NCBI GenBank assembly: GCA_963798085.1
Contig: CAWCRS010000003.1
Span: forward strand, 672,001-736,000
Reading direction: 5' to 3'
DNA length: 64,000 bases
Origin: an uncultured Gemmatimonadales bacterium
GTDB taxonomy: Bacteria > Gemmatimonadota > Gemmatimonadetes > Longimicrobiales > RSA9
Position 1 is the stretch's first letter; every line of letters begins with the position of its first letter. This document shows positions 16,454-27,547 of this stretch, in pieces. The notes beneath the pieces were generated by a model that was not told the origin of the DNA, searched no databases, and saw nothing but the letters and a program-made list of their open reading frames with translations. The translations under genes and the position numbers were made by a program.

Positions 16454-16598
16454 GCAGATCGTTTCTTCTGTTCACGACGCGCCGGAGGCGACAGCAAGGG
16501 CGGCGCAAGCATGTCCGCGCCCTTCGTCGCGTGGCCCGATCAACAGCCTGCCGGGCCGGCGGCCGACAGACCGCCGAGCGTGAAATGGCGTGCTAAAT
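16454..16598 (-). mobile_element. degenerate attC site
   Basis: Shares TTCACGACGCGCCG..GGCGCA.GC.TGTCC with the site at 23705; TTCACG/CGTGAA arms; cores mutated (GCAGATC, GCTAAAT on + strand). Confidence 0.6.
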
Positions 16599-16605
16599 GC
16601 CGTGG

Positions 16606-17005
16606 TGGTTCGGCAGAGGCTGATCCTATTGCACATCGTTCGGGGGTGATGGTTTACAGTCGCCATGGTAACGTGAGCCTTCCCTTTGACGGGAGGCTCC
16701 ATGCTCTGGAGGACGCAGACCATCATGGACGAACGTGCTCGCTTTGCGATCGAGGCCTCGCACTCGACGCACCCGTTTGCGGAGACCTGCCGCGGTTTCG
16801 GGATCAGCCGGCCCACCGGCTACAAGTGGCTCCGAGCGCTATCGTGACGGGCAATTCGCCGGGCTCGCCGAATCGCTCGCACCGGCCCACAATGCCCTCA
16901 CGCGACGCCACAGCCCGTCGTGCAGCGTATGCTTGCGCTGCGCCAAATGGAGTGCGGTACCCGCAAGATCCAGCGCTTGCAGGGTGTTCGACACCGTGGC
17001 CTGCC
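16606..17005 (+). mobile_element. IS481-like element, 5' remnant
   Basis: Near-copy of 19151-19555 including left end and MDERARFAIEA.. N-terminus, decayed and truncated. Confidence 0.85.
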
Positions 17006-17056
17006 ACTGCTCAGGACAACGGCTGGGATCGGCCACTGTCTCGGGTCTACAGTGAT

Positions 17057-18139
17057 TCATGTCTTGGCCTTTTGCTGTCGCCGGACGGGCGGCCTGGAAG
17101 TGACCGCTCGGAATTCGTTGGCGTCGGCAAGTTTCTCGACCAAGTGCCTTATCCAGGCCTCCTTGTACCCGTACGCATCCGCGAAGGCGTCGTACACGCA
17201 GAATTGCTCGATTGTTTTTTCCTTCTGCTTGCTGTTCGTTGGCGGCCTGACGTTGTAATGCCTCCACGCTCGTGTGTGTGTATCCTGCGTGAAGACATAT
17301 GGCAACTCGGCGGCAACGCGCTTCACGACCTCGCTCGGTTTGAGTAGGTCGGCAAATGCGACGGGAACGCGGCGCTCCTTGATGAGCGCGGCCACCTTCG
17401 CGAGCTGGGCCATTTCCTCAGGCTTCGTGGGATCGTACGGGACGAACTCGATCGACAAGTCAGAGGCACTCTCACGATTGGCGAGCTTCGGTACCAAGAA
17501 CACACTCAACGTGTACTTGGGGCTTGCAAGAACCTCTGGCGGCAGGCCGGCTCGGTAGGTCCGGACAAACTCGAGGAGATCGCGGGCGGCGGATTTCTCG
17601 AGGCTTCTTACCGCCGCGGCTTGGGATTCCGGACGTAGGGCTGAGAATTGAAGGGATACTGCTAGGGAAGCCGTGAGCGCGTGGTTCGGGGTAAACTCGT
17701 GGACCAAAAGATCCTCGAAGTTCATCAGCAGGGCTTGGCATTCGCCGTAGAGCGCCGGATCAAGCTCCGGGTGATCGCGGTGCTCAATGCGGTTCCTGAT
17801 CTTGATGAAGAACTCGAAGTTGCTCCGCTCCGGCGGGTTCTTGTCGCCCCAGTACTGCCGGAGACACTCCCCGAGTTCCCAATGCTTTGGTTCGCCGTCG
17901 ACCCGTGTGTAACGGAGACCCTTACCGGAGCCACCTTGCACGTACCAAGGCTTGATCCCGCGTGCGTAGAAGATCGCGTGGAAAAGCGCCGTGGTGGCCA
18001 TCACCATCAGGACTGCATACGTGCGAGTACGAAAGCCGCCGCCTGGCCGGTTGTAGTTCTCAACAGCGCACAGAGCACTCGCGCGCGCCTTCTGGAGATG
18101 TTGACGTGCAAGCCGGGGAATGCGCTTTCTTGACATCAC
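17057..18139 (-). CDS. DUF3644 domain protein with HEPN-type RxxxxH motif
   Basis: KARASALCAVENYNRP..FRTRTY N-terminus; IRNRIEH; CQALLMNFE. Confidence 0.75.
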   Translation of the reverse strand: MMSRKRIPRLARQHLQKARASALCAVENYNRPGGGFRTRTYAVLMVMATTALFHAIFYARGIKPWYVQGGSGKGLRYTRVDGEPKHWELGECLRQYWGDKNPPERSNFEFFIKIRNRIEHRDHPELDPALYGECQALLMNFEDLLVHEFTPNHALTASLAVSLQFSALRPESQAAAVRSLEKSAARDLLEFVRTYRAGLPPEVLASPKYTLSVFLVPKLANRESASDLSIEFVPYDPTKPEEMAQLAKVAALIKERRVPVAFADLLKPSEVVKRVAAELPYVFTQDTHTRAWRHYNVRPPTNSKQKEKTIEQFCVYDAFADAYGYKEAWIRHLVEKLADANEFRAVTSRPPVRRQQKAKT

Positions 18140-18193
18140 GCTTCTATCCTACACCGGATCTGTTTGCTGACTGTAACTGTTGCCCGCTTGCGC

Positions 18194-18300
18194 CTTTTAT
18201 GGATTGTGTGCTGTCAAGCCCTACGGTTCCGAGCGACACAACCCCCCCTCGGACGGGACAGCCCACATGCTGGCTGAGGCCGTGGCCTCGCCGGTCCTTG
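18194..18300 (-). mobile_element. orphan right end of an IS110-family element
   Basis: About 50 bp similar to 26109-26155 (GTGTCGCT..GGGCTTGACAGCA.ACA.TCCATA.AAG on minus strand). Confidence 0.7.
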
Positions 18301-18304
18301 CGGC

Positions 18305-18943
18305 TTACGGCTCAGAATGCCGACCCGTGGCCAAGTCGATTGATTCAACGATCAGAAGAGCGCGATTGACGATTCGGCGATATCCTTCGTCGAGCATTGC
18401 CAGTACGCTCGCGTGGCTCTCTGCGCTGATCGCAGAATCGAAGGTCTTCTCAAACAGCAGCATCAATAGATCGACCTCCGAGTTGTAGAAGTCAAGCTGA
18501 TCCCTAAGCCAATGCAGCATCTGTTGCAGCTCCAAAGAGAGGATGACGAACCCGACTGTTTGGCTTCCCAAGAATGGAGCCGTGTAGCGAACCAAGTGGA
18601 GAGGCCTGCTCGGACGGCCTTGGGCGTGGCTCAGGGCGTTGAGATCTGGCGCTGACATGCCTGCGAGTCGGCGCATCCCGAGAATGCCGTCAACATCGTC
18701 CTCCGGACCCGCCGTCACCCTAGCGATTCCTGCTCGAATTCGCTCAAGCAGTCGATCGTCCAAGAGGGCGCGGCGGTAAGCGACGGTCAGAGCCAGAATG
18801 GCAAAAGTATCGCGAAGCTGTCCAAGCTCTGCGAACAACGCCGTCTTGAGCTTCTTGCGTTGACGGGGACGATCAATGACCTCGGCAAGGGGGCCAGAGA
18901 ACAGGCCCAATGCCCAGCCTAAGATCAAAGTCAGGACGGGCAT
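18305..18943 (-). CDS. hypothetical cassette protein with N-terminal TM helix
   Basis: 212 aa ORF downstream of attC R' at 19013; hydrophobic N-terminus then helical domain. Confidence 0.65.
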   Translation of the reverse strand: MPVLTLILGWALGLFSGPLAEVIDRPRQRKKLKTALFAELGQLRDTFAILALTVAYRRALLDDRLLERIRAGIARVTAGPEDDVDGILGMRRLAGMSAPDLNALSHAQGRPSRPLHLVRYTAPFLGSQTVGFVILSLELQQMLHWLRDQLDFYNSEVDLLMLLFEKTFDSAISAESHASVLAMLDEGYRRIVNRALLIVESIDLATGRHSEP

Positions 18944-19006
18944 TGGGTCAGCATAGTCCCAGGTGTATGTCAGCCATCTTCACGAACAAGTCCCTCGCAC
19001 GATTCC

Positions 19007-19150: not shown

Positions 19151-20488
19151 GGGTTCGGTCGAGGCTGATCCTTTACACATCGTTCGGGGGCGATGGTTTA
19201 CAGTCGCCTTGGTAACGTGAGCCTTCCTTTTTTGACGGGAGGCTCCATGCCGTGAAGGACGCAAACCATCATGGACGAACGTGCTCGCTTTGCGATCGAG
19301 GCCTCGCATTCCACGCACCCGTTTGCGGAGACCTGCCGCCGGTTCGGGATCAGCCGGCCCAGCGGCTACAAATGGCTCCAACGCTATCGTGACGAGCAAT
19401 TCGCCGGGCTCGCCGATCGCTCGCACCGGCCGACGAGCTGCCCTCACGCCACGCCACAGCCCGTCGTGCAGCGCATCCTTGCGCTGCGGGACCAGATGGA
19501 GTGCGGTGCCCGCAAGATCCAGCGCTTGCTGCGCGACAAGTTCGACACCGTGCCTTGCATCGATACCATTCACGACATCCTCTGCCGGCACCAGCGCGTC
19601 ACGCCGCGCAGGCCTTCCCGCCGACGTACCCATCCCGGGCCACCATTCACGTCCATGGCCCATGCCAACAATGTCTGGACCGCCGACTTCAAGGGTGAAT
19701 TCAAGACGGGCGATGGCCGCTCCTGCTTCCCGCTCACGATCCAGGACGGCTACTCCCGCTTCCTGCTCGAGTGTCGTGCCTTCACCCGCCTCGATCTCAA
19801 AGCACGGCACGGCGATTCGATCACCTCTTCCACACCTGTGGACTGCCGAATCGCATCCGTACCGACAATGGCCATCCCTTCGCATCCCGTGCCCTTGCAC
19901 GCCTCTCCCAGCTCTCCGTTGACTGGATCAAGCTGGGCATTCTCCCCGAGACCATCGAACCCGGCAAACCCTATCAGAACGGCCGGCATGAACGCATGCA
20001 TCGCACGCTTGGCGAGCGCACCGCCACCCCACCCGCTCCAACGCTTCGTGCGCAGCAGCGCCGCTTCAACGAATTCCGCACCTTCCACAATACCGTGCGT
20101 CCACATGAAAGCCTGGGCCAGGAGACCCCCGCTTCCTTCTATACGCCGTCCGCGCGTCGGCTCGCACGCACCCCTTCACCGCTGGTCTATCCCCGGCACT
20201 TCGAACAACGCCTGGTCAGTCAGCTCGGCTCCATCCGCTGGAAGAAGCGCTTCATCCATGTGAGCCGCCTGCTCGCGCACGAATACGTCGCGCTCGAACC
20301 GATCGCCGTCTCCGTCTGGTCCGTCTATTTCGGTCCCATTCACCTGGGTTGGCTTGACGAAACAACGATTTCCGTATCATGGACGCACGACGACTGCAGC
20401 AACGACAACGCTGACCATCAACCCCCGAACGTTCTGTAAACGATCACCCCCACTGCTCAGTTGCAAAGGATCGGCCACGCCTACTGCA
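19151..20488 (+). mobile_element. IS481-family insertion sequence, transposase about 19247-20440 (frameshifted)
   Basis: HTH (CRRFGISRPSGYKWL), WTADFKG, IRTDNG, QNGRHERMH DDE motifs; repeated terminal boxes GGCTGATCCTTTACA / TGCAAAGGATCGGCC, GATGGTTTACA / TGTAAACGATC. Confidence 0.9.
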
Positions 20489-20489
20489 A

Positions 20490-21477
20490 CTACGACTTCC
20501 GGCGGCCGGCAATCACAGCGGTGAGGGCTAGGATGACGACGCCCACGAGAATCGCGAGAAATGCGATTGTGTTGCCAGTCAGTTTGCCTTGAGCGAAAGA
20601 CACGCCGCCATACATTATCGGGCCTGCAGCAATGATGATACCGATCATCATCAGCACTTTGCGCTCAAACAACAGCTCGACCTTCTCAAGAACGCTCTGA
20701 CGGCCTGCCTCGATTTTCTCAGAAAGCACCTTGGTCTCGTGCTCGATCGTCTTCGCAAGGCTCTGTGTGCGTTCTTGGAACTCGTCCTTCATTATTCGCA
20801 CGTCAGATACAACCTCGAATTTACCATGCAAGTTGGTCAGTTCCGTACCAATGTGATCGAACGGGTAGCCCGCCTCGCGTAGTTGCTTCTTTGGATCGAG
20901 CTGCCCGAAGCTCGAGGCAACCAGCTTACGCTTCGGAATGTCCGCAGGTATGCGGCGGCCGGAGCGGACAACGCCCTCCGAATCTTGGTATCGGTGGCTC
21001 GGGTGGGAACCATAAGGGAAATCAGGTCGCTCTTCGCCCTCAAGGACGAGGATGGTCAATTTGAAGATCGGTTCCCCATACTGAATGATGAGATCCTTGA
21101 CAGAACCGTTTCGAAGGCCCCAATTCAGCGAACCCCGGAACCCGGCATCGATCTTCGTCGCAACTTGCGAGATTCCCTCTCGCATTATCGTGGTTGTGGG
21201 CGTAATGAAGCCCATCAACATGCGGTTGGGCAGCACCTTGTGAACTGCTTCGGCCGTGAAGTCAATAGCCTCTAGGCTAGAAATGACCACGCTTTCGCCG
21301 GGCAGACCTTGAGGAACATACCCTCCTCGAGTTCGGCCTCCTCCCCCGTTGAGTGAAAGAGGACCTCTTTCCCGAGTCGAAGTTCGATGCCATTGGGGTT
21401 GAGAAGCTCCTCGCTCGCGTTCTGGAGAACGGAACCAAGAAGTCTCTTTACATTCGGTCAGCGAGCAGCTTGGCCAT
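20490..21477 (-). CDS. Dcd/dUTPase-fold domain + coiled coil + two C-terminal TM helices (two apparent frameshifts in first 60 codons)
   Basis: Reconstructed MAKLLADR.VKRLLGSVLQNASEELLNPNGIELRLG..PGESVVISSLE..KIDAGFRG..YQDSEG; two hydrophobic helices at C-terminus. Confidence 0.75.
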
Positions 21478-21530
21478 AACACGCCTCGTCGGTCCTTAGA
21501 GTCTATAATGTAATGCGCGAAGACCATGGC

Positions 21531-21676
21531 GGCCAACGTCCCGCGGTTTACGACGCCGCGAGAGCCCGGCGACAGCCGGGCGAAGCGCTGTCCGACGCCT
21601 CCCCGTGCTACCCCTTTCCCGTGCCTGCGGCGGCCAGCGGCTGCAGGCCGCGCAGCGTAAACCCAGCGTGTTATGC
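21531..21676 (-). mobile_element. attC site
   Basis: Minus: GCATAAC-ACGCT-GGGTTTACG ... CGTAAACCGC-GGGAC-GTTGGCC. Confidence 0.85.
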
Positions 21677-21752
21677 GCCGTTCGATCCGCCATGTTGCGG
21701 GCGGCCCGGCTCTAGCAGCACAAGTCCACCGGCACAACGGAGCTCTGGGGCC

Positions 21753-22892
21753 TTAGAGTATTTTCGCCCGGTATGGAAACCTCACGCTGAACGTTGTCAT
21801 ATACATTCCGCGGTACCCCGCATCAGGCTCCTCATGTTGTTCCACGGTTATCTCTGTTCCCAGGTGTTCCTTCGCAACCAGTTGGCTCAGATACAGACCA
21901 TATCCTGCGCCTTCCTCGACGGCCTGAAGCGCAGCCTCACCACGGAAGAATGGTCTGAAGACCTTACGGATTTCGTCCTTCAGAATCTTCGGCCCGAGCG
22001 AGGAGACCTCCAGTACGATCCCGTCACGTTCATCTTGGACGAAAATCTCAATTGTAGAGCCAACTGGGGCGTACTTCACGGCATTGTCGATAAGGGTGTG
22101 CGGGATTACGGACGACGCCTGCGGGTTTGCGACGACGTTGGCATAGCTCGATCCAGCTACAGTCACCCTGAGGTTCTTGGCGTCGAACCACGACTGATAG
22201 ATACGGACATACTTGATCACAGCGCCATGCAGGCGGAACGCAACGCACTCCGATGCGATGGTGAGCCATTCCGGGCGTAGCAGAAATTTCGCCACATTGA
22301 GCTTTTCTCCAAGGAACCGAGCTGCTTCATAGATCGCGCGTTCGGCCCGCGATGCACGGCCTAGTTTATCCTCGAACGTCCCGCCAGGGTGCAGTTCCTC
22401 GATGATCACATTGATGTTCTGACTGATCTGCGCATTGATCTGCTTGTAGTCATGTACGAACGCAAGGCCACGTTGTATGTCTTCCTTCAGGGACTTGAGA
22501 TAGTCAACCCGAAATTGGTCCACGTCGAGAATGTCTTCCCGTTCTTCGGTAAACCTAATCTCCCTTTCTTCTTTTCGGCGACTGAGAAGGGCGCGGTAGT
22601 AGTCAAGTGCCGCCTGGAATTCCTTGTTCGGAACAGGGACCACTTGACGCCGGCGACTTTTGCGTGCCGGTGTCGCGTAAAGCCAATCCTCAAGGACCAC
22701 GCCCGCGACCAGCAATTTGCTATCGACTCGTTGGTAGTTGAAGCCGTACTTGCAAAGCTGCGCGCCCTCCTTACTCTCGTGCTCACAAGGCCGATCCATG
22801 CAACGGAGGCATCGCGACGGCCACGGGCGGAGGCTGCCATCGCCGTAATGGCCATTGTAGAGGTGCGGGAATGGGAAGAAAAGGGTATCCAT
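21753..22892 (-). CDS. soluble sensor histidine kinase with Cys-rich N-terminus
   Basis: FVHDYKQIN H-box, LIDNAVKY N-box, GAGYGLY G2 box; CLRC..PC..LC N-terminus; no TM. Confidence 0.85.
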   Translation of the reverse strand: MDTLFFPFPHLYNGHYGDGSLRPWPSRCLRCMDRPCEHESKEGAQLCKYGFNYQRVDSKLLVAGVVLEDWLYATPARKSRRRQVVPVPNKEFQAALDYYRALLSRRKEEREIRFTEEREDILDVDQFRVDYLKSLKEDIQRGLAFVHDYKQINAQISQNINVIIEELHPGGTFEDKLGRASRAERAIYEAARFLGEKLNVAKFLLRPEWLTIASECVAFRLHGAVIKYVRIYQSWFDAKNLRVTVAGSSYANVVANPQASSVIPHTLIDNAVKYAPVGSTIEIFVQDERDGIVLEVSSLGPKILKDEIRKVFRPFFRGEAALQAVEEGAGYGLYLSQLVAKEHLGTEITVEQHEEPDAGYRGMYMTTFSVRFPYRAKIL

Positions 22893-23540
22893 CAGTGCAC
22901 CAATAGCTGCAGGACCGCTATGCCAGCCTGCGCGACTTGCAGTATGAGGCCAACTGTCTGCCGTTCCTCTCGGGCGTCACGAAGATAGCTGGCCAGTGAG
23001 TCTGTGTCGCGAAGTAGAATGGCTCTTTTGGCCACCTCCTGGAGCTGCCTTGGCTCGATGTCGGCGGAATGGGATAGCGAACCGATCCGGTCTAGGTAGA
23101 AGGCAAGCGAAAACCGTCGTTGTAGCAAGTCATCAATGGTTCGTTTGAATTCAACGTAATCCGCGCGCTTATCAAGTGTCGCGTCCGCAAGATCGAAGAA
23201 TTCCTTGTATTTCAGGGGCCAATCAGCGTTTGAATACGCGACGATGACTTGGGCCGGCGCGACCTTCTTCAAATGCCGAAGGACCCCGAGGCCTGCGTCT
23301 TTGGAGATGGCTGTACCCACGCCGTGGATGTCAAGCAGGATAACATTCGAAGTAGCCAGCCTCGAGTTTCGGCAAGTCAGTGACGTCTTGCCATTGTTCG
23401 ATGGTATAGCCATCGCGTTGGAATAGCTGGAGATAGAAGAACTCCGCGTCGTCGAGGACGAGCAAGCGAGCTCGCTTCGCAATTTCCTCGCTCGAAACAT
23501 GAGGCCAAGGCTTGGGACGGCGCTTGAATGGCCAACGCAT
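22892..23540 (-). CDS. receiver-domain response regulator without recognisable DNA-binding output (frameshift near 23346)
   Basis: RLLVLDD..VILLDIHGVG..IVAYS..LDK; TGATG coupling to kinase. Confidence 0.8.
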
Positions 23541-23704
23541 GGTTCCCGAACTCGTTCAAGGGGGACGCCAACTAGCCCGGTCTTGGGATGTTTAGACTCT
23601 CCAAGCGCAGTGTCAAGGACGACAAGTCGAGGCGGCCGTCGTTACGGGTCTATGCACGCCGGTGTTTTCACGTCGAGACACGATGCCGGTTGGCATCGCA
23701 TTGC

Positions 23705-23845
23705 GCATAACGTTCATTGATTCACGACGCGCCGAGAGCCGAGCGAAGCCCGGCGCAGGCGTGTCCAACGCCTTTCCCAATCTACACCTATCCCAGCCCG
23801 GGTTGGCACAGCCGAAGGCTGCGCCGGGTGAATCTGGTGTTAGCG
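23705..23845 (-). mobile_element. attC site
   Basis: Minus: CGCTAAC-ACCA-GATTCAC ... GTGAATC-AATGAAC-GTTATGC. Confidence 0.85.
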
Positions 23846-23942: not shown

Positions 23943-24957
23943 CTAATTGCAGGGCCATACACCCCCGCGTAGCACAACGCCTGCTTCCCGAAGGTAGCTG
24001 TTGCGGCTCGTGGACCATCGCCGGTCAATGCCACTCCTGTCGAGCAATTCGCCGTGCAGGTTCGATACGAATCGGTCAAGCAGGATCGTCAGATACATTA
24101 GGAGGTGAGCAACCGCGCGTGGCGCGGTTGCGAGGGCGCCCGCCGAGACAGGAACGGCCGATTCGAATCTATCGATTACGTCGTTAATCTCTAGAACCCT
24201 GTCAGTGTCCAGCGTACCAGATTCGCCCAAGCCGCCCAGACCGCCTGACCGCATCATAGCCGAACCCCGGACGATAGTTTATGGCATTGCGTATGGCGCT
24301 CGGCCATTCGCGACCGAGGATGTCGCCTGACCGCTTGATTGCGCGAAATGCGCGTTCCTCACCGGCTGAGCCGGTTCCGCTTGGGTACTTCTGAAGCCAC
24401 TCAGTACAGATATCAAACCACGCCCTCCAGACGTTGTCGTGGAGCCTGCCGTGCGCCTTTCGCAAGGAGATCTCTCTCGCGGTAGCGCCGACGCTCGTCC
24501 CGCAGTTGACCCGGTAGGTACCTGACCCGGCCTTCCGCCCAGCGGCTCCGGCTGCCGCCAGGACTCGGCTAACGTCCGCGTCTACGAACCACGCAGTCCT
24601 ACCGATAAGACGCGTCGCGGCGAGCACCAAGAAGAAGGCCCAATAGTACCAAGTGATCACAAGCCACGCCGGACTCCAAGTACCACCGCTACTCTGCGCG
24701 CGCCAAAGGAACACTTGGTGCTCAGCTGCGTGGTCAAGCAGGTACTCCGCATTCCCGATGAGAGCCGAGCCGAACTCCATCGCTGGCACAACGAGCGTGT
24801 ACCCTTTGCTCGATGATGCGCTAACGGTAAAGTATCCCGCTTGCGTCCACGAGCCAAGCGTGTTGGGTCGCCCGAACGTGTGCGAAACGCCGATCGGGAT
24901 TGCATCCAGCGCGAGCGACCTTGCCTCTTGCCAGACGTTGCCCTTGGGGAAGCTCAA
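23943..24957 (-). CDS. hypothetical protein, HEPN-like (frameshift near 24225), partner of DGQHR protein
   Basis: WLVITWYYWAFF helix, GRLH, IRNAINY (RNxxxY); TTGA overlap with upstream gene. Confidence 0.6.
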
Positions 24958-25972
24958 AGCATTGCCTCGGAGATCGGAGTCCCTTTGCGGAGAGCGGCGT
25001 GAAACAGTGCAACTATTCCGCGCTTGGTGAGGGTGGCGCGTCCGGTGATTCCAGAACTGAGGTCAAGGCGTGCAAGTGGTCGGACTACCATTTGTATATC
25101 GGCCTGCTTGGCACTGCCGCGTTGATTTATCGCGGTCCGGACAACTTCATCGAGCACTTCAAACATGGCCTCAAAGAACGCCGCCTTTGTGAGATTGCGC
25201 TTATCGATGAGTTCGGCGTCGAAAGCATTGAGATAGTTCAAGATGAGTTTGAACCGCATGTCAGGGTCAACATCCAAAAGAACACCACTGTCAAGGATCT
25301 GCGACAACGCGCGATTGAACGTAACGCGCGAGATCTTTCCGCTGAGCGATCTCGCTGCACTCAGGCGGCCCGCAAGGGGGGATCGGGGATGCTTCTGGAG
25401 CTTGTCGAAGTACTCCCGGAGGATCTGTTCCTTCGCGCTTTCGATTTCTGCGACTTGCTTGATATCGAGAAGCAAGGCGGCCGGTACTCCACGCTGAGTC
25501 GTGTTAATATCGATGAAGAGTTTTGCCTCCTCAGTGCGCGAGAGACCGTCGTATATGGCTACTGGAACGCGATGACGAACCGAGCACTTTTGATAACCCC
25601 AGAGCCTGTGCTGACCATTGATTACGAGAAAGGCTCCCTGCACTCTTGCAAAGGATAAGGACTTGGTCCGGCGGGCGTACGAGAACTCGGCCACATTTGG
25701 GCGGATAGGACGATGTTGCTCGGAATCGATCCAGAACCCGCTGCCAGGTAGGCGGCGATGTCATTTGCGCGCGTCTCGTTCAACGCTCTCTGAAATCCAG
25801 TTGCGGGATCGTCATCACGACGGGAAACGAAGCAACTTGGAAAAAGATCATCCACGGGGATCGTGGCAAAATAAAAGCGGTGGCGATTCTGTGTCATGAG
25901 CAGCGCTGGATACGAGATCGGCCTTCGCACACGCCGGCTCGCTGCTTTGGCAGTAGGTTTCTTGGATGACAT
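24954..25972 (-). CDS. DGQHR/DndB-like (ParB-fold) protein (frameshift near 25695)
   Basis: GFQRALNETRANDIAAYL, IPSNIVL, INGQHRLWG, EEAKLFIDINTTQRGV. Confidence 0.88.
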
Positions 25973-26108: not shown

Positions 26109-27547
26109 CTTCTATGGACTGTCTGCTGTCAAGCCCCACGCTTCAAGCGACACGATTCCGTTCAGTGCTGTTCACACTGTTCCAGCGAACGGCTCGACGT
26201 CGGCGGCTTCGTGAGTTTGTGCGGCAGGCTGCGCCGTCACGCCCTTCTATCCGTGCCGGCCGCAAGGGAGCCGGTCACCCTCTACTGCATGCGCGCGATC
26301 CACTCGTGCGCCCTGGAAGCCGCTGTCGGGATGGGCTCCATTTAACGTACGGTTTCCTCATGGGAGAACCACCCGCCATAACGAGCTCCACCTCTCGACG
26401 TCGTCTGTCAAACAGCGGTGCTTGCTTCCGATCAGGCCGTACGCAGCTTCGCGCCTTCCGGTACCACGCCCGCATCCGCATAGCGCCAGAGCGCAATCAG
26501 CAGCTTGCGCGCCAGTGCCACAATGCCGATCCGCCGCATGCGTTTCCCGCCATGACCGAAGCGCGCTTCGTACCAGCGGCTCAGCTGACTTCGCGGCTGG
26601 AAGCGCAGCCAGCACCAGGCAATCTCGATCGCCATCGCCCGGACCTGCCGGTTCCCCGCCTTGGTGATCCCCAGCTCGTGGTCCATCTCGCCGCTCTTGT
26701 GCGGCGTACCCACCAGTCCCGCCAGCGCTCCCACCTGACGTCGATTGCGGAACTGTCGCCAACTGAAGAATTCCATGCTGAAGGTCCAGGCACTGTTCAA
26801 GCCGATCGCTTTCAATGATCCCAGGCGACGCACCATTGTGTACGCGGGCTCACTCGACGTGCGGAGCAGTCGCCGCCGCTCCGCTTCCACTCGCCGGATC
26901 TGCTGCTTCACCAGCAACACTCGCTCCCACTCCCGCTCCAGCCGTGCCCGCAGGGCCGCAGGGAGCTTCGTCCGGTTCCAGAGCCGCGCACGGCTCAAGC
27001 GTGCGAGAAAGTCCGTGACCAGCTCGAGCCGCAACCCCTGACTGGCCAGCAGTCCCTTTCGGTTCGTCAGCCGCGTCTGCTCGTGCTTCAGCGTTTCCAG
27101 CTCCCGGTGCAGCTGCCGCCGGTCTTCCTCTTCCACACTCGGAACCTGCACCACGCTCCAGGTGCGCACCTCTCCGCCACAGTACTCCACCAGCATGCGC
27201 AGCAGCTTCGTCAGATCCACACGGTCCGTCTTCACTCGCCGCCGCCCTGTCCGCACCTCGAAGCTCGTCGCATCCACCACCAGACTTCTCACTCCGTTCG
27301 CCTCCATAAACCGGTGCAGCCAGAATCCCTCACGTCCCGCTTCGTAGCAGCACACCACCTTCGCATCGCTCTTCAGACTGAAGCGCCGCTTCGCACGTGC
27401 CACTTCCTCCAGAAGCGCTTCTCTGTCCCGTGCCTCGATCACTCGCTCGCGTACCGGTTGCGCCGGCGCCGTCTTGAACCCCAGATTCCACTTCGACTGG
27501 CCGATCTCGATCGCCATGTAGCTGCTGGCCGGCTTGGAACCACGCAC
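26109..27547 (-). mobile_element. IS110-family element: recombinase 26432-27547 plus 3' non-coding end; left end apparently deleted
   Basis: AIEIG, CYEAG, KTDRVD RuvC-like residues; HKSG..GITKAGN Tnp domain; right end TTGACA..CCATAGAAG. Confidence 0.9.
26170..26430 (-). ncRNA. candidate bridge/seek RNA in IS110 3' non-coding end
   Basis: About 320 bp non-coding end with hairpins; contains ATAGAAG (26244-26250) identical to the element terminus (26109-26115); boundaries approximate. Confidence 0.55.

Follow-up and report, generated by a model that had tools for sequence, protein, structure and literature searches.

We find that an integron gene cassette from an uncultured Gemmatimonadales bacterium encodes a receiver protein and a soluble histidine kinase that probably form a minimal defensive phosphorelay. 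The module is a real two-gene pair, widespread but rare. It is likely to have a role in defense. The specific reading that we favor, at somewhat less than even confidence, is that the pair acts as a minimal switch against phages or other mobile elements, with the kinase phosphorylating the receiver and the receiver acting at the membrane. Given a defensive role, the receiver is fairly likely to be a membrane effector. There is indirect support for the proposal in the initial annotation that the receiver is itself the effector, and for a putative role in defense. What we observe directly is the cassette structure, the strict pairing of the two genes, the catalytic residues of both proteins, and a genomic hotspot that the pair has in common with defense genes.

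The cassette lies in the window, that is, the whole 64,000-nucleotide stretch of DNA that was analyzed. Its features are as follows.

21537 to 23710, reverse strand: whole integron gene cassette (2,174 bp; GC content 0.57, versus 0.66 for the window)
23705 to 23845, reverse strand: attC belonging to the upstream cassette; the kinase-receiver cassette starts at the core site formed by the R' end of this attC, GTTATGC (23711 to 23705)
22892 to 23540, reverse strand: receiver gene (215 aa in relatives), frameshifted here at 23346 to 23347; a short basic and aromatic N terminus, a REC domain, and a four-helix tail with a hydrophobic last helix
21753 to 22892, reverse strand: soluble histidine kinase (379 aa) with a HATPase_c match; an N-terminal domain (residues ~1 to 85), a long helix (89 to 125), a DHp domain (129 to 205, with His147), and a catalytic ATPase domain (217 to 372)
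22752 to 22811, reverse strand: Cys cluster of the kinase, C28-x2-C31-x4-C36-x10-C47
21531 to 21676, reverse strand: attC of the kinase-receiver cassette itself (146 bp), with its inverse core site at 21676 to 21670

The ends of the cassette pair with each other over 9 bp (GTTATGCGC at 21670 to 21678 and GCGCATAAC at 23703 to 23711). These complementary ends are the integron core and inverse-core sites, and the attC hairpin lies 3' of the cassette genes. Both attCs (21531 to 21676 and 23705 to 23845) have arm-pairing scores of 8 to 9, while none of 250 random control windows scored 8 or more. Four attCs occur in the window (at 16458, 19006, 21531, and 23705), and their family numbers 65 copies in the 12-contig genome. 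The attC that closes the cassette is of the host's integron family. The 9-bp pairing, the core sites, and the 65-copy attC family support the initial annotation, which had described a self-contained mobile cassette with complementary ends. The cassette that it placed at 21677 to 23711 is real, but that interval omitted the cassette's own attC, and the unit spans 21537 to 23710. We identified no third gene between its ends, in agreement with the earlier claim that it holds no target gene.

An intact integron integrase (IntI), scoring above the family cut-off, is encoded on contig C1 at 447,485; none was found inside the window. A large chromosomal integron array, with 45 attCs of the genome total of 65, spans ~380,000 to 445,000 of contig C2, and contig C12 has an integrase-like match in two pieces. 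The cassette may have a promoter of its own. A scan for sigma-70 promoters and terminators returned no sites; the 170-bp leader of the cassette contains a perfect TTGACA (23611 to 23616, reverse strand) with no passing −10 box.

The cassette is enclosed by a low-GC island (~16.5 to 28.7 kb), and neighboring genes in the window match PDC-S19 (390 bits), Mrr, DGQHR, and a dCTP-deaminase-like family. The upstream cassette (24202 to 25972, reverse strand) contains a DGQHR/DndB-like gene in two frames, followed by a gene for a 251-aa protein of no family. The downstream cassette (~20490 to 21528, reverse strand) encodes a dCTP-deaminase-like protein with weak DCD and TIGR02274 matches and apparent membrane helices at its C terminus; this cassette is a possible nucleotide-depletion defense. 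Between the attCs at 19006 and 16458, a further cassette (17057 to 18943, reverse strand) carries a gene for a 212-aa protein of no family and the DUF3644/PDC-S19 gene. Insertion elements interrupt the array: one is IS481-like and has a second, partial copy, and another is IS110-like (19271 to 20439, 16629 to 17055, and 26432 to 27547); the IS481 gene in the window is frameshifted. Integrons are known carriers of streamlined defense systems and cassettes (10.1101/2024.07.02.601686).

The initial annotation missed a frameshift in the receiver gene, which is not one intact open reading frame here. One extra base in the run at 23346 to 23347 (+1) places residues 1 to 66 (from 23540 downward) in a different frame from the remainder. 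The two halves have 64 and 57% identity to a single intact 215-aa homologue, and they share one frame in 43 of the 46 homologous loci where both halves were seen. Because this assembly switches frame at 7 of 48 tested conserved loci (8 events in 18,016 codons), and its sole rpoC is also split by a frameshift (contig C5, 433,985), the frameshift in the receiver is probably an assembly or sequencing error. Broken genes in this assembly should thus be read with caution. It is doubtful, for this copy alone and separately from the function of the family, that the frameshift is real and the cassette a decaying pseudogene. Such decay would be consistent with the lack of an integrase for the array in the window, with the IS481 and IS110 insertions and other frameshifted genes in it, and with disrupted or partial copies elsewhere (L026; remnants L027, L031, and L033). 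Against this, beyond the frame switches and the split rpoC, the receiver halves here keep every catalytic residue and contain no further stop. The receiver stop and the kinase start share one base (TGATG at 22892), which supports the translational coupling reported previously.

Intact receivers keep the acidic pocket, phospho-Asp, Ser/Thr, and Lys expected of a receiver domain: D30, D70, and K124 are invariant, and D31 and S103 are present in at least 90% (n = 37). The model of an intact receiver (pLDDT 94) consists of a REC domain and four helices, and the REC fold matches known structures (VIA Z ~15, rmsd 2.2, 115 aligned). The tail, which had been called short and helical, is indeed helical but not short, being a four-helix region of ~70 residues, spanning 144 to 215, with a largely uncharged last helix. 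It is weakly conserved (top-residue frequency 0.39 versus 0.72); its most conserved columns are hydrophobic, and it has no invariant polar residue. The last helix contains at most one charged residue in 29 of 37 sequences, while the N terminus of the receiver is basic and aromatic in 32 of 37. Hydropathy typical of a membrane helix is reached by the C-terminal helix in some members only. We found no enzyme family and no recognizable DNA-binding part (Trans_reg_C or GerE) on the receiver; its tail ends in this hydrophobic helix, a putative membrane effector.

The wider receiver family comprises, at 50% identity, at least 646 clusters with E ≤ 1e-10, including 106 with E ≤ 1e-30. Genome searches for it, scoring up to seven candidates per genome, detected it in none of the 381 genomes searched for one phylum and in 2 of the 381 searched for another. 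We compared terminal helices among 100 of the best 150 receivers, all full length with a standard tail. A hydrophobic C-terminal helix occurs in 2 of the 22 receivers that have an N-terminal hydrophobic helix, versus 63 of the 78 that do not (rho −0.52). The helix state changes nine times on a weakly resolved tree and only two independent pairs lie on strong branches, so this trade-off is not significant once relatedness is counted. Since the two helices are nearly mutually exclusive, the comparison hints at a membrane site of action for the receiver, with one membrane-targeting helix perhaps needed at either end of the protein. Alternatively, the C-terminal helix might just pack against the rest of the tail, out of reach of the membrane, which would argue against a membrane effector.

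A single search recovered 218 kinase homologues at E ≤ 0.001, of which 92 full-length sequences were aligned. Eight residues are invariant in all 92 (H147, D148, N270, G300, F315, G328, G330, and G332), with His147 in the motif FVHDY; we take these to represent the H, N, G1, F, and G2 boxes. None of the 92 homologues has a membrane helix, consistent with the earlier description of a kinase lacking transmembrane segments. The kinase model (pLDDT 93) comprises a small N-terminal domain (β-hairpin/helix), a long helix, the DHp domain, and the catalytic domain, and only the DHp and catalytic domains match solved structures (Z 21, rmsd 1.9, 151 aligned). Results of fold searches with the kinase and receiver models were filled by kinase and REC cores. 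Among the 25 families listed for the 92 members, none is a TPR family and none is a Pfam match to the Cys-containing N-terminal domain. An ESM Atlas query with the receiver tail and the kinase N-terminal domain gave no usable match. We likewise found no longer proteins in which the receiver or this domain is fused to other parts, which is weak evidence.

The four cysteines of the N-terminal domain are kept in 92, 92, 91, and 92 of the 92 homologues. The CxxC-x4-C-x9-C cluster described initially is therefore present and conserved, except that its last spacing is x10 rather than x9. The proposal that the kinase senses metal or redox state has fared less well: it finds support only in the conserved cysteines, which some related kinases lack. 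L132, a more distant relative whose genes are laid out in the same way, lacks the cluster, and only one of the two true PDC-M43 kinases examined contains a Cys cluster; thus, the cysteines may be structural. A structural metal site and a redox sensor are equally likely explanations for the cluster. We consider it unlikely that the pair is an accessory metal- or redox-sensing module with no part in defense. Such a module would bind Zn or Fe-S through the cluster, and its receiver would relay the signal to a host protein in a motility, c-di-GMP, or proteolysis circuit, in the manner of CheY- or DivK-type single-domain regulators. Near-invariant cysteines and a canonical REC fold with canonical residues speak for this alternative. 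Its standing is lowered by the related kinases that lack the cysteines and by a comparison of the N-terminal domain with PocR (hhalign, four sequences only), which gave a probability of 0.4% and left the N terminus without an alignment. Distribution and gene context, presented below, bear on it as well.

The family set comprises 59 of 121 loci (L009-L033 and L050-L083), some of them redundant (L025/L075/L076 and L015/L062). The other 62 are weak matches to ordinary kinases, of which 31 served as controls, with L035 left out as a near-copy of L034. The initial annotation had proposed a search for a conserved gene pair and its contexts. Such a pair exists: the receiver is directly upstream of the kinase in all 50 family loci in which the kinase N terminus is present, and we found no kinase with an intact N terminus that lacks an upstream receiver. 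All-against-all comparison of 2,050 flanking ORFs revealed no recurring partner gene except nrdB in Pseudomonas. Homologous pairs also do not always sit in ordinary regulatory operons with a third output gene. None of 46 family loci has a DNA-binding response regulator close by among its nearest genes, versus 13 of 31 controls (p = 1e-6).

Defense or toxin-antitoxin genes are among the nearest neighbors in 8 of 46 family loci versus 2 of 31 control loci, which is not significant (p = 0.30) and to that extent suits a sensing module outside defense. Counting mobile-element genes as well, the figures are 12 of 46 versus 3 of 31 (p = 0.09). These tallies were made by hand (E ≤ 1e-8) at loci with scannable neighbors, and many of the family contigs are short. 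The neighbors of some copies are DISARM/RM, Abi_alpha, TIR, Vsr-methylase, Mrr, or HerA genes. The pair might be only a sensing module that relies on an effector gene outside it, such as a variable defense gene nearby, and would then make up a partial or satellite system. There is a precedent in Ambrosia, which is described as joining a kinase and a receiver to RM-like genes (10.1101/2025.09.30.679545). We regard this as improbable, as no neighbor recurs beside the pair, which is alone inside its cassette here and the sole cargo between fixed flanks in a Pseudomonas locus (L012). Three of the 49 other loci have attC-like sites 3' of the kinase, which also counts against it; the cassette form therefore recurs, yet is not the rule.

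The pair appears patchy and foreign in its distribution, as judged from the genomes and records compared. The 25 genome loci of the family cover at least eight phyla (by record title), which are unlikely to have one host target in common, and the receiver was found in none of 60 relatives of the host. Both observations weigh against a host-wired sensing module. GC content of the pair is lower than that of its flanks in all six loci measured (e.g., 0.37 versus 0.63 in Pseudomonas). Intact copies occur in cultured environmental strains of the Pseudomonas group and in Uliginosibacterium. We found no relatives of the pair on viral contigs, and no plasmid with the kinase or close receivers, although one plasmid carries PDC-M43. 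Phage records yielded no DNA match and one weak partial receiver match.

The strongest evidence for a putative defensive role comes from a genomic slot after nrdB in Pseudomonas. In L012, from Pseudomonas benzopyrenica BaP3, this slot is at L012:9259-11144, and the pair is inserted there between nrdB and a conserved gene for a 348-aa protein with no Pfam family. The same downstream gene is present in 12 of 20 post-nrdB regions from relatives. One of these 12 regions is empty, and 11 have other cargo that differs in sequence start and family. Six of the 11 cargoes match defense or candidate defense families: PDC-S33 (427 bits), PDC-S08 (462 bits), dGTPase (243 bits), AIPR/AbiU, putAbiC, and PDC-S59 (63 bits, weak). 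The remaining five comprise one ORC-CDC6-like ATPase, one Bro-N protein, and three without a match. Among the other eight post-nrdB regions, three have CBASS, GmrSD_N, or PDC-S59. That the pair swaps with defense genes at this slot counts against a sensing role outside defense. Within the slot relatives (L168-L179), the cargoes of L168, L174, and L175 and the second genes of L170, L176, and L179 match no family; these are candidate defense genes, and the slot is a source of more such candidates.

We propose that the kinase would be switched on during infection by a cue, probably either a phage protein or a disturbed state of the host, acting on the small N-terminal domain that holds the Cys cluster. 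His147 would then hand a phosphate to Asp70 of the receiver, as predicted from the residues of both proteins and from their coupling. The phosphorylated receiver may oligomerize or expose its terminal helix and thus damage or depolarize the membrane, so that the infected cell would be arrested. A stronger form of this model, which is tentative, holds that the pair represents the smallest phosphorelay immune system. A phosphorylated bare receiver would itself damage the membrane, the helix being C-terminal here and N-terminal in PDC-M43 within one superfamily, and the Cys domain would be a new infection sensor.

The logic could also be inverted, in a defense or addiction module. Either the kinase would be harmful, through cross-phosphorylation of host regulators or by burning ATP, with a membrane-tethered receiver as phosphate sink or antitoxin; or the unphosphorylated receiver would be toxic and the kinase would restrain it until infection stops the kinase. 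In antitoxin-toxin operons, the antitoxin gene comes first and the two genes are translationally coupled. The receiver gene is likewise first and coupled, and no kinase with an intact N terminus was found without it; yet receiver-then-kinase is also the usual order in two-component operons. That PDC-M43A has no tail implies that the tail is not required as an effector domain. On the other hand, the tail extends ~90 residues past the catalytic Lys in most members, for which a mere sink has no obvious need, and in the kinase core we noticed no unusual conserved feature suggestive of an effector. The stand-alone receiver proposed as a phosphate buffer in Detocs (10.1101/2023.01.24.525353) offers a parallel. 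On balance, we regard inverted logic as rather unlikely and retain the membrane-acting receiver as our working model.

Burroughs and Aravind reportedly treated kinase-receiver conflict systems in 2020. We found no description of this kinase-receiver pair in the literature searched, and an earlier bioinformatic mention is possible. The closest catalogued relative is PDC-M43, a PADLOC-DB 2.0 candidate (A, receiver; B, kinase). The initial annotation had missed this link, as well as the one to Detocs. Like the pair here, PDC-M43 consists of two genes, a receiver followed by an overlapping soluble kinase (~350 aa), with no DNA-binding output. The two receivers fall into one unusual clade to which ordinary regulators show no match. 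Our receiver matches the PDC-M43A model with E values from 2e-13 (window fragment) to 4e-19 (relatives), far better than Pfam Response_reg. The PDC-M43A model detected 1 of 301 genomes of the host phylum (the receiver here), 2 of 400 in another class, and 0 of 14 controls; PDC-M43B at 1e-25 detected 0 of 400 genomes, in a search with no positive control.

True PDC-M43 loci, namely L133 (Shewanella plasmid NC_017577) and L191, score 259 to 292 bits (A) and 396 to 438 bits (B) over their full length. The pair here reaches 49 to 67 bits, over the REC domain alone, and 48 bits, over the ATPase domain alone, so that the scores of the true loci are four to nine times as high. PDC-M43A of the two members seen carries a membrane-type helix at its N terminus and ends with the REC domain, without a tail, whereas the receiver here continues into a tail of four helices that is hydrophobic at its end. 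Neither the N-terminal nor the DHp part of PDC-M43B aligns with its counterpart in our kinase family. Because its scores are far lower and its receiver architecture differs, we consider the pair to be, on present comparisons, an uncatalogued sister family of PDC-M43, not a member. The true PDC-M43 pair of L191 (L191:1315-2966), whose kinase contains CxxC-x3-C-x9-C, directly follows what is presumably a ribonucleotide reductase gene. PDC systems are described as candidates that lie within BREX, DISARM, or type I RM loci, and PDC-M43 is absent by name from the main text of that report (Payne et al., 10.1101/2024.01.29.577857).

Ordinary two-component systems (OmpR/PhoB and NarL; CheY, Spo0F, and DivK) share with the pair the REC fold, the DHp-CA core, and all catalytic residues. 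The pair differs from them in having no Trans_reg_C or GerE domain, no membrane sensor, no adjacent regulated genes, and a patchy, mobile distribution. Ambrosia is reported as a defense system in which a histidine kinase and a receiver are coupled to RM-like genes; its five genes include a winged-HTH receiver and RM-like enzymes, which the pair lacks (10.1101/2025.09.30.679545).

Detocs (DtcA, DtcB, and DtcC) is a validated defensive two-component system in which, as described by its discoverers, phosphotransfer from His to Asp switches on a receiver that bears a killing effector in place of a DNA-binding domain; in some cases this effector is a membrane domain (Rousset et al., 10.1101/2023.01.24.525353). 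According to that account, it consists of three genes: its kinase contains TPRs, a separate receiver serves as buffer, and the effector is mostly a PNP nucleosidase. In contrast, the pair here has two genes, no buffer receiver, a small Cys domain in place of TPRs, and no enzymatic domain on its receiver. Detocs turned two-component signaling into immunity, yet with three genes and a recognizable effector. If our reading is correct, then a two-gene version without an enzymatic effector shows how little immunity requires, explains a large receiver family currently annotated as ordinary regulators, and offers a mechanism for the candidate PDC-M43. The module would then be a defensive two-component variant, akin to PDC-M43 and resembling a stripped-down Detocs in its action.
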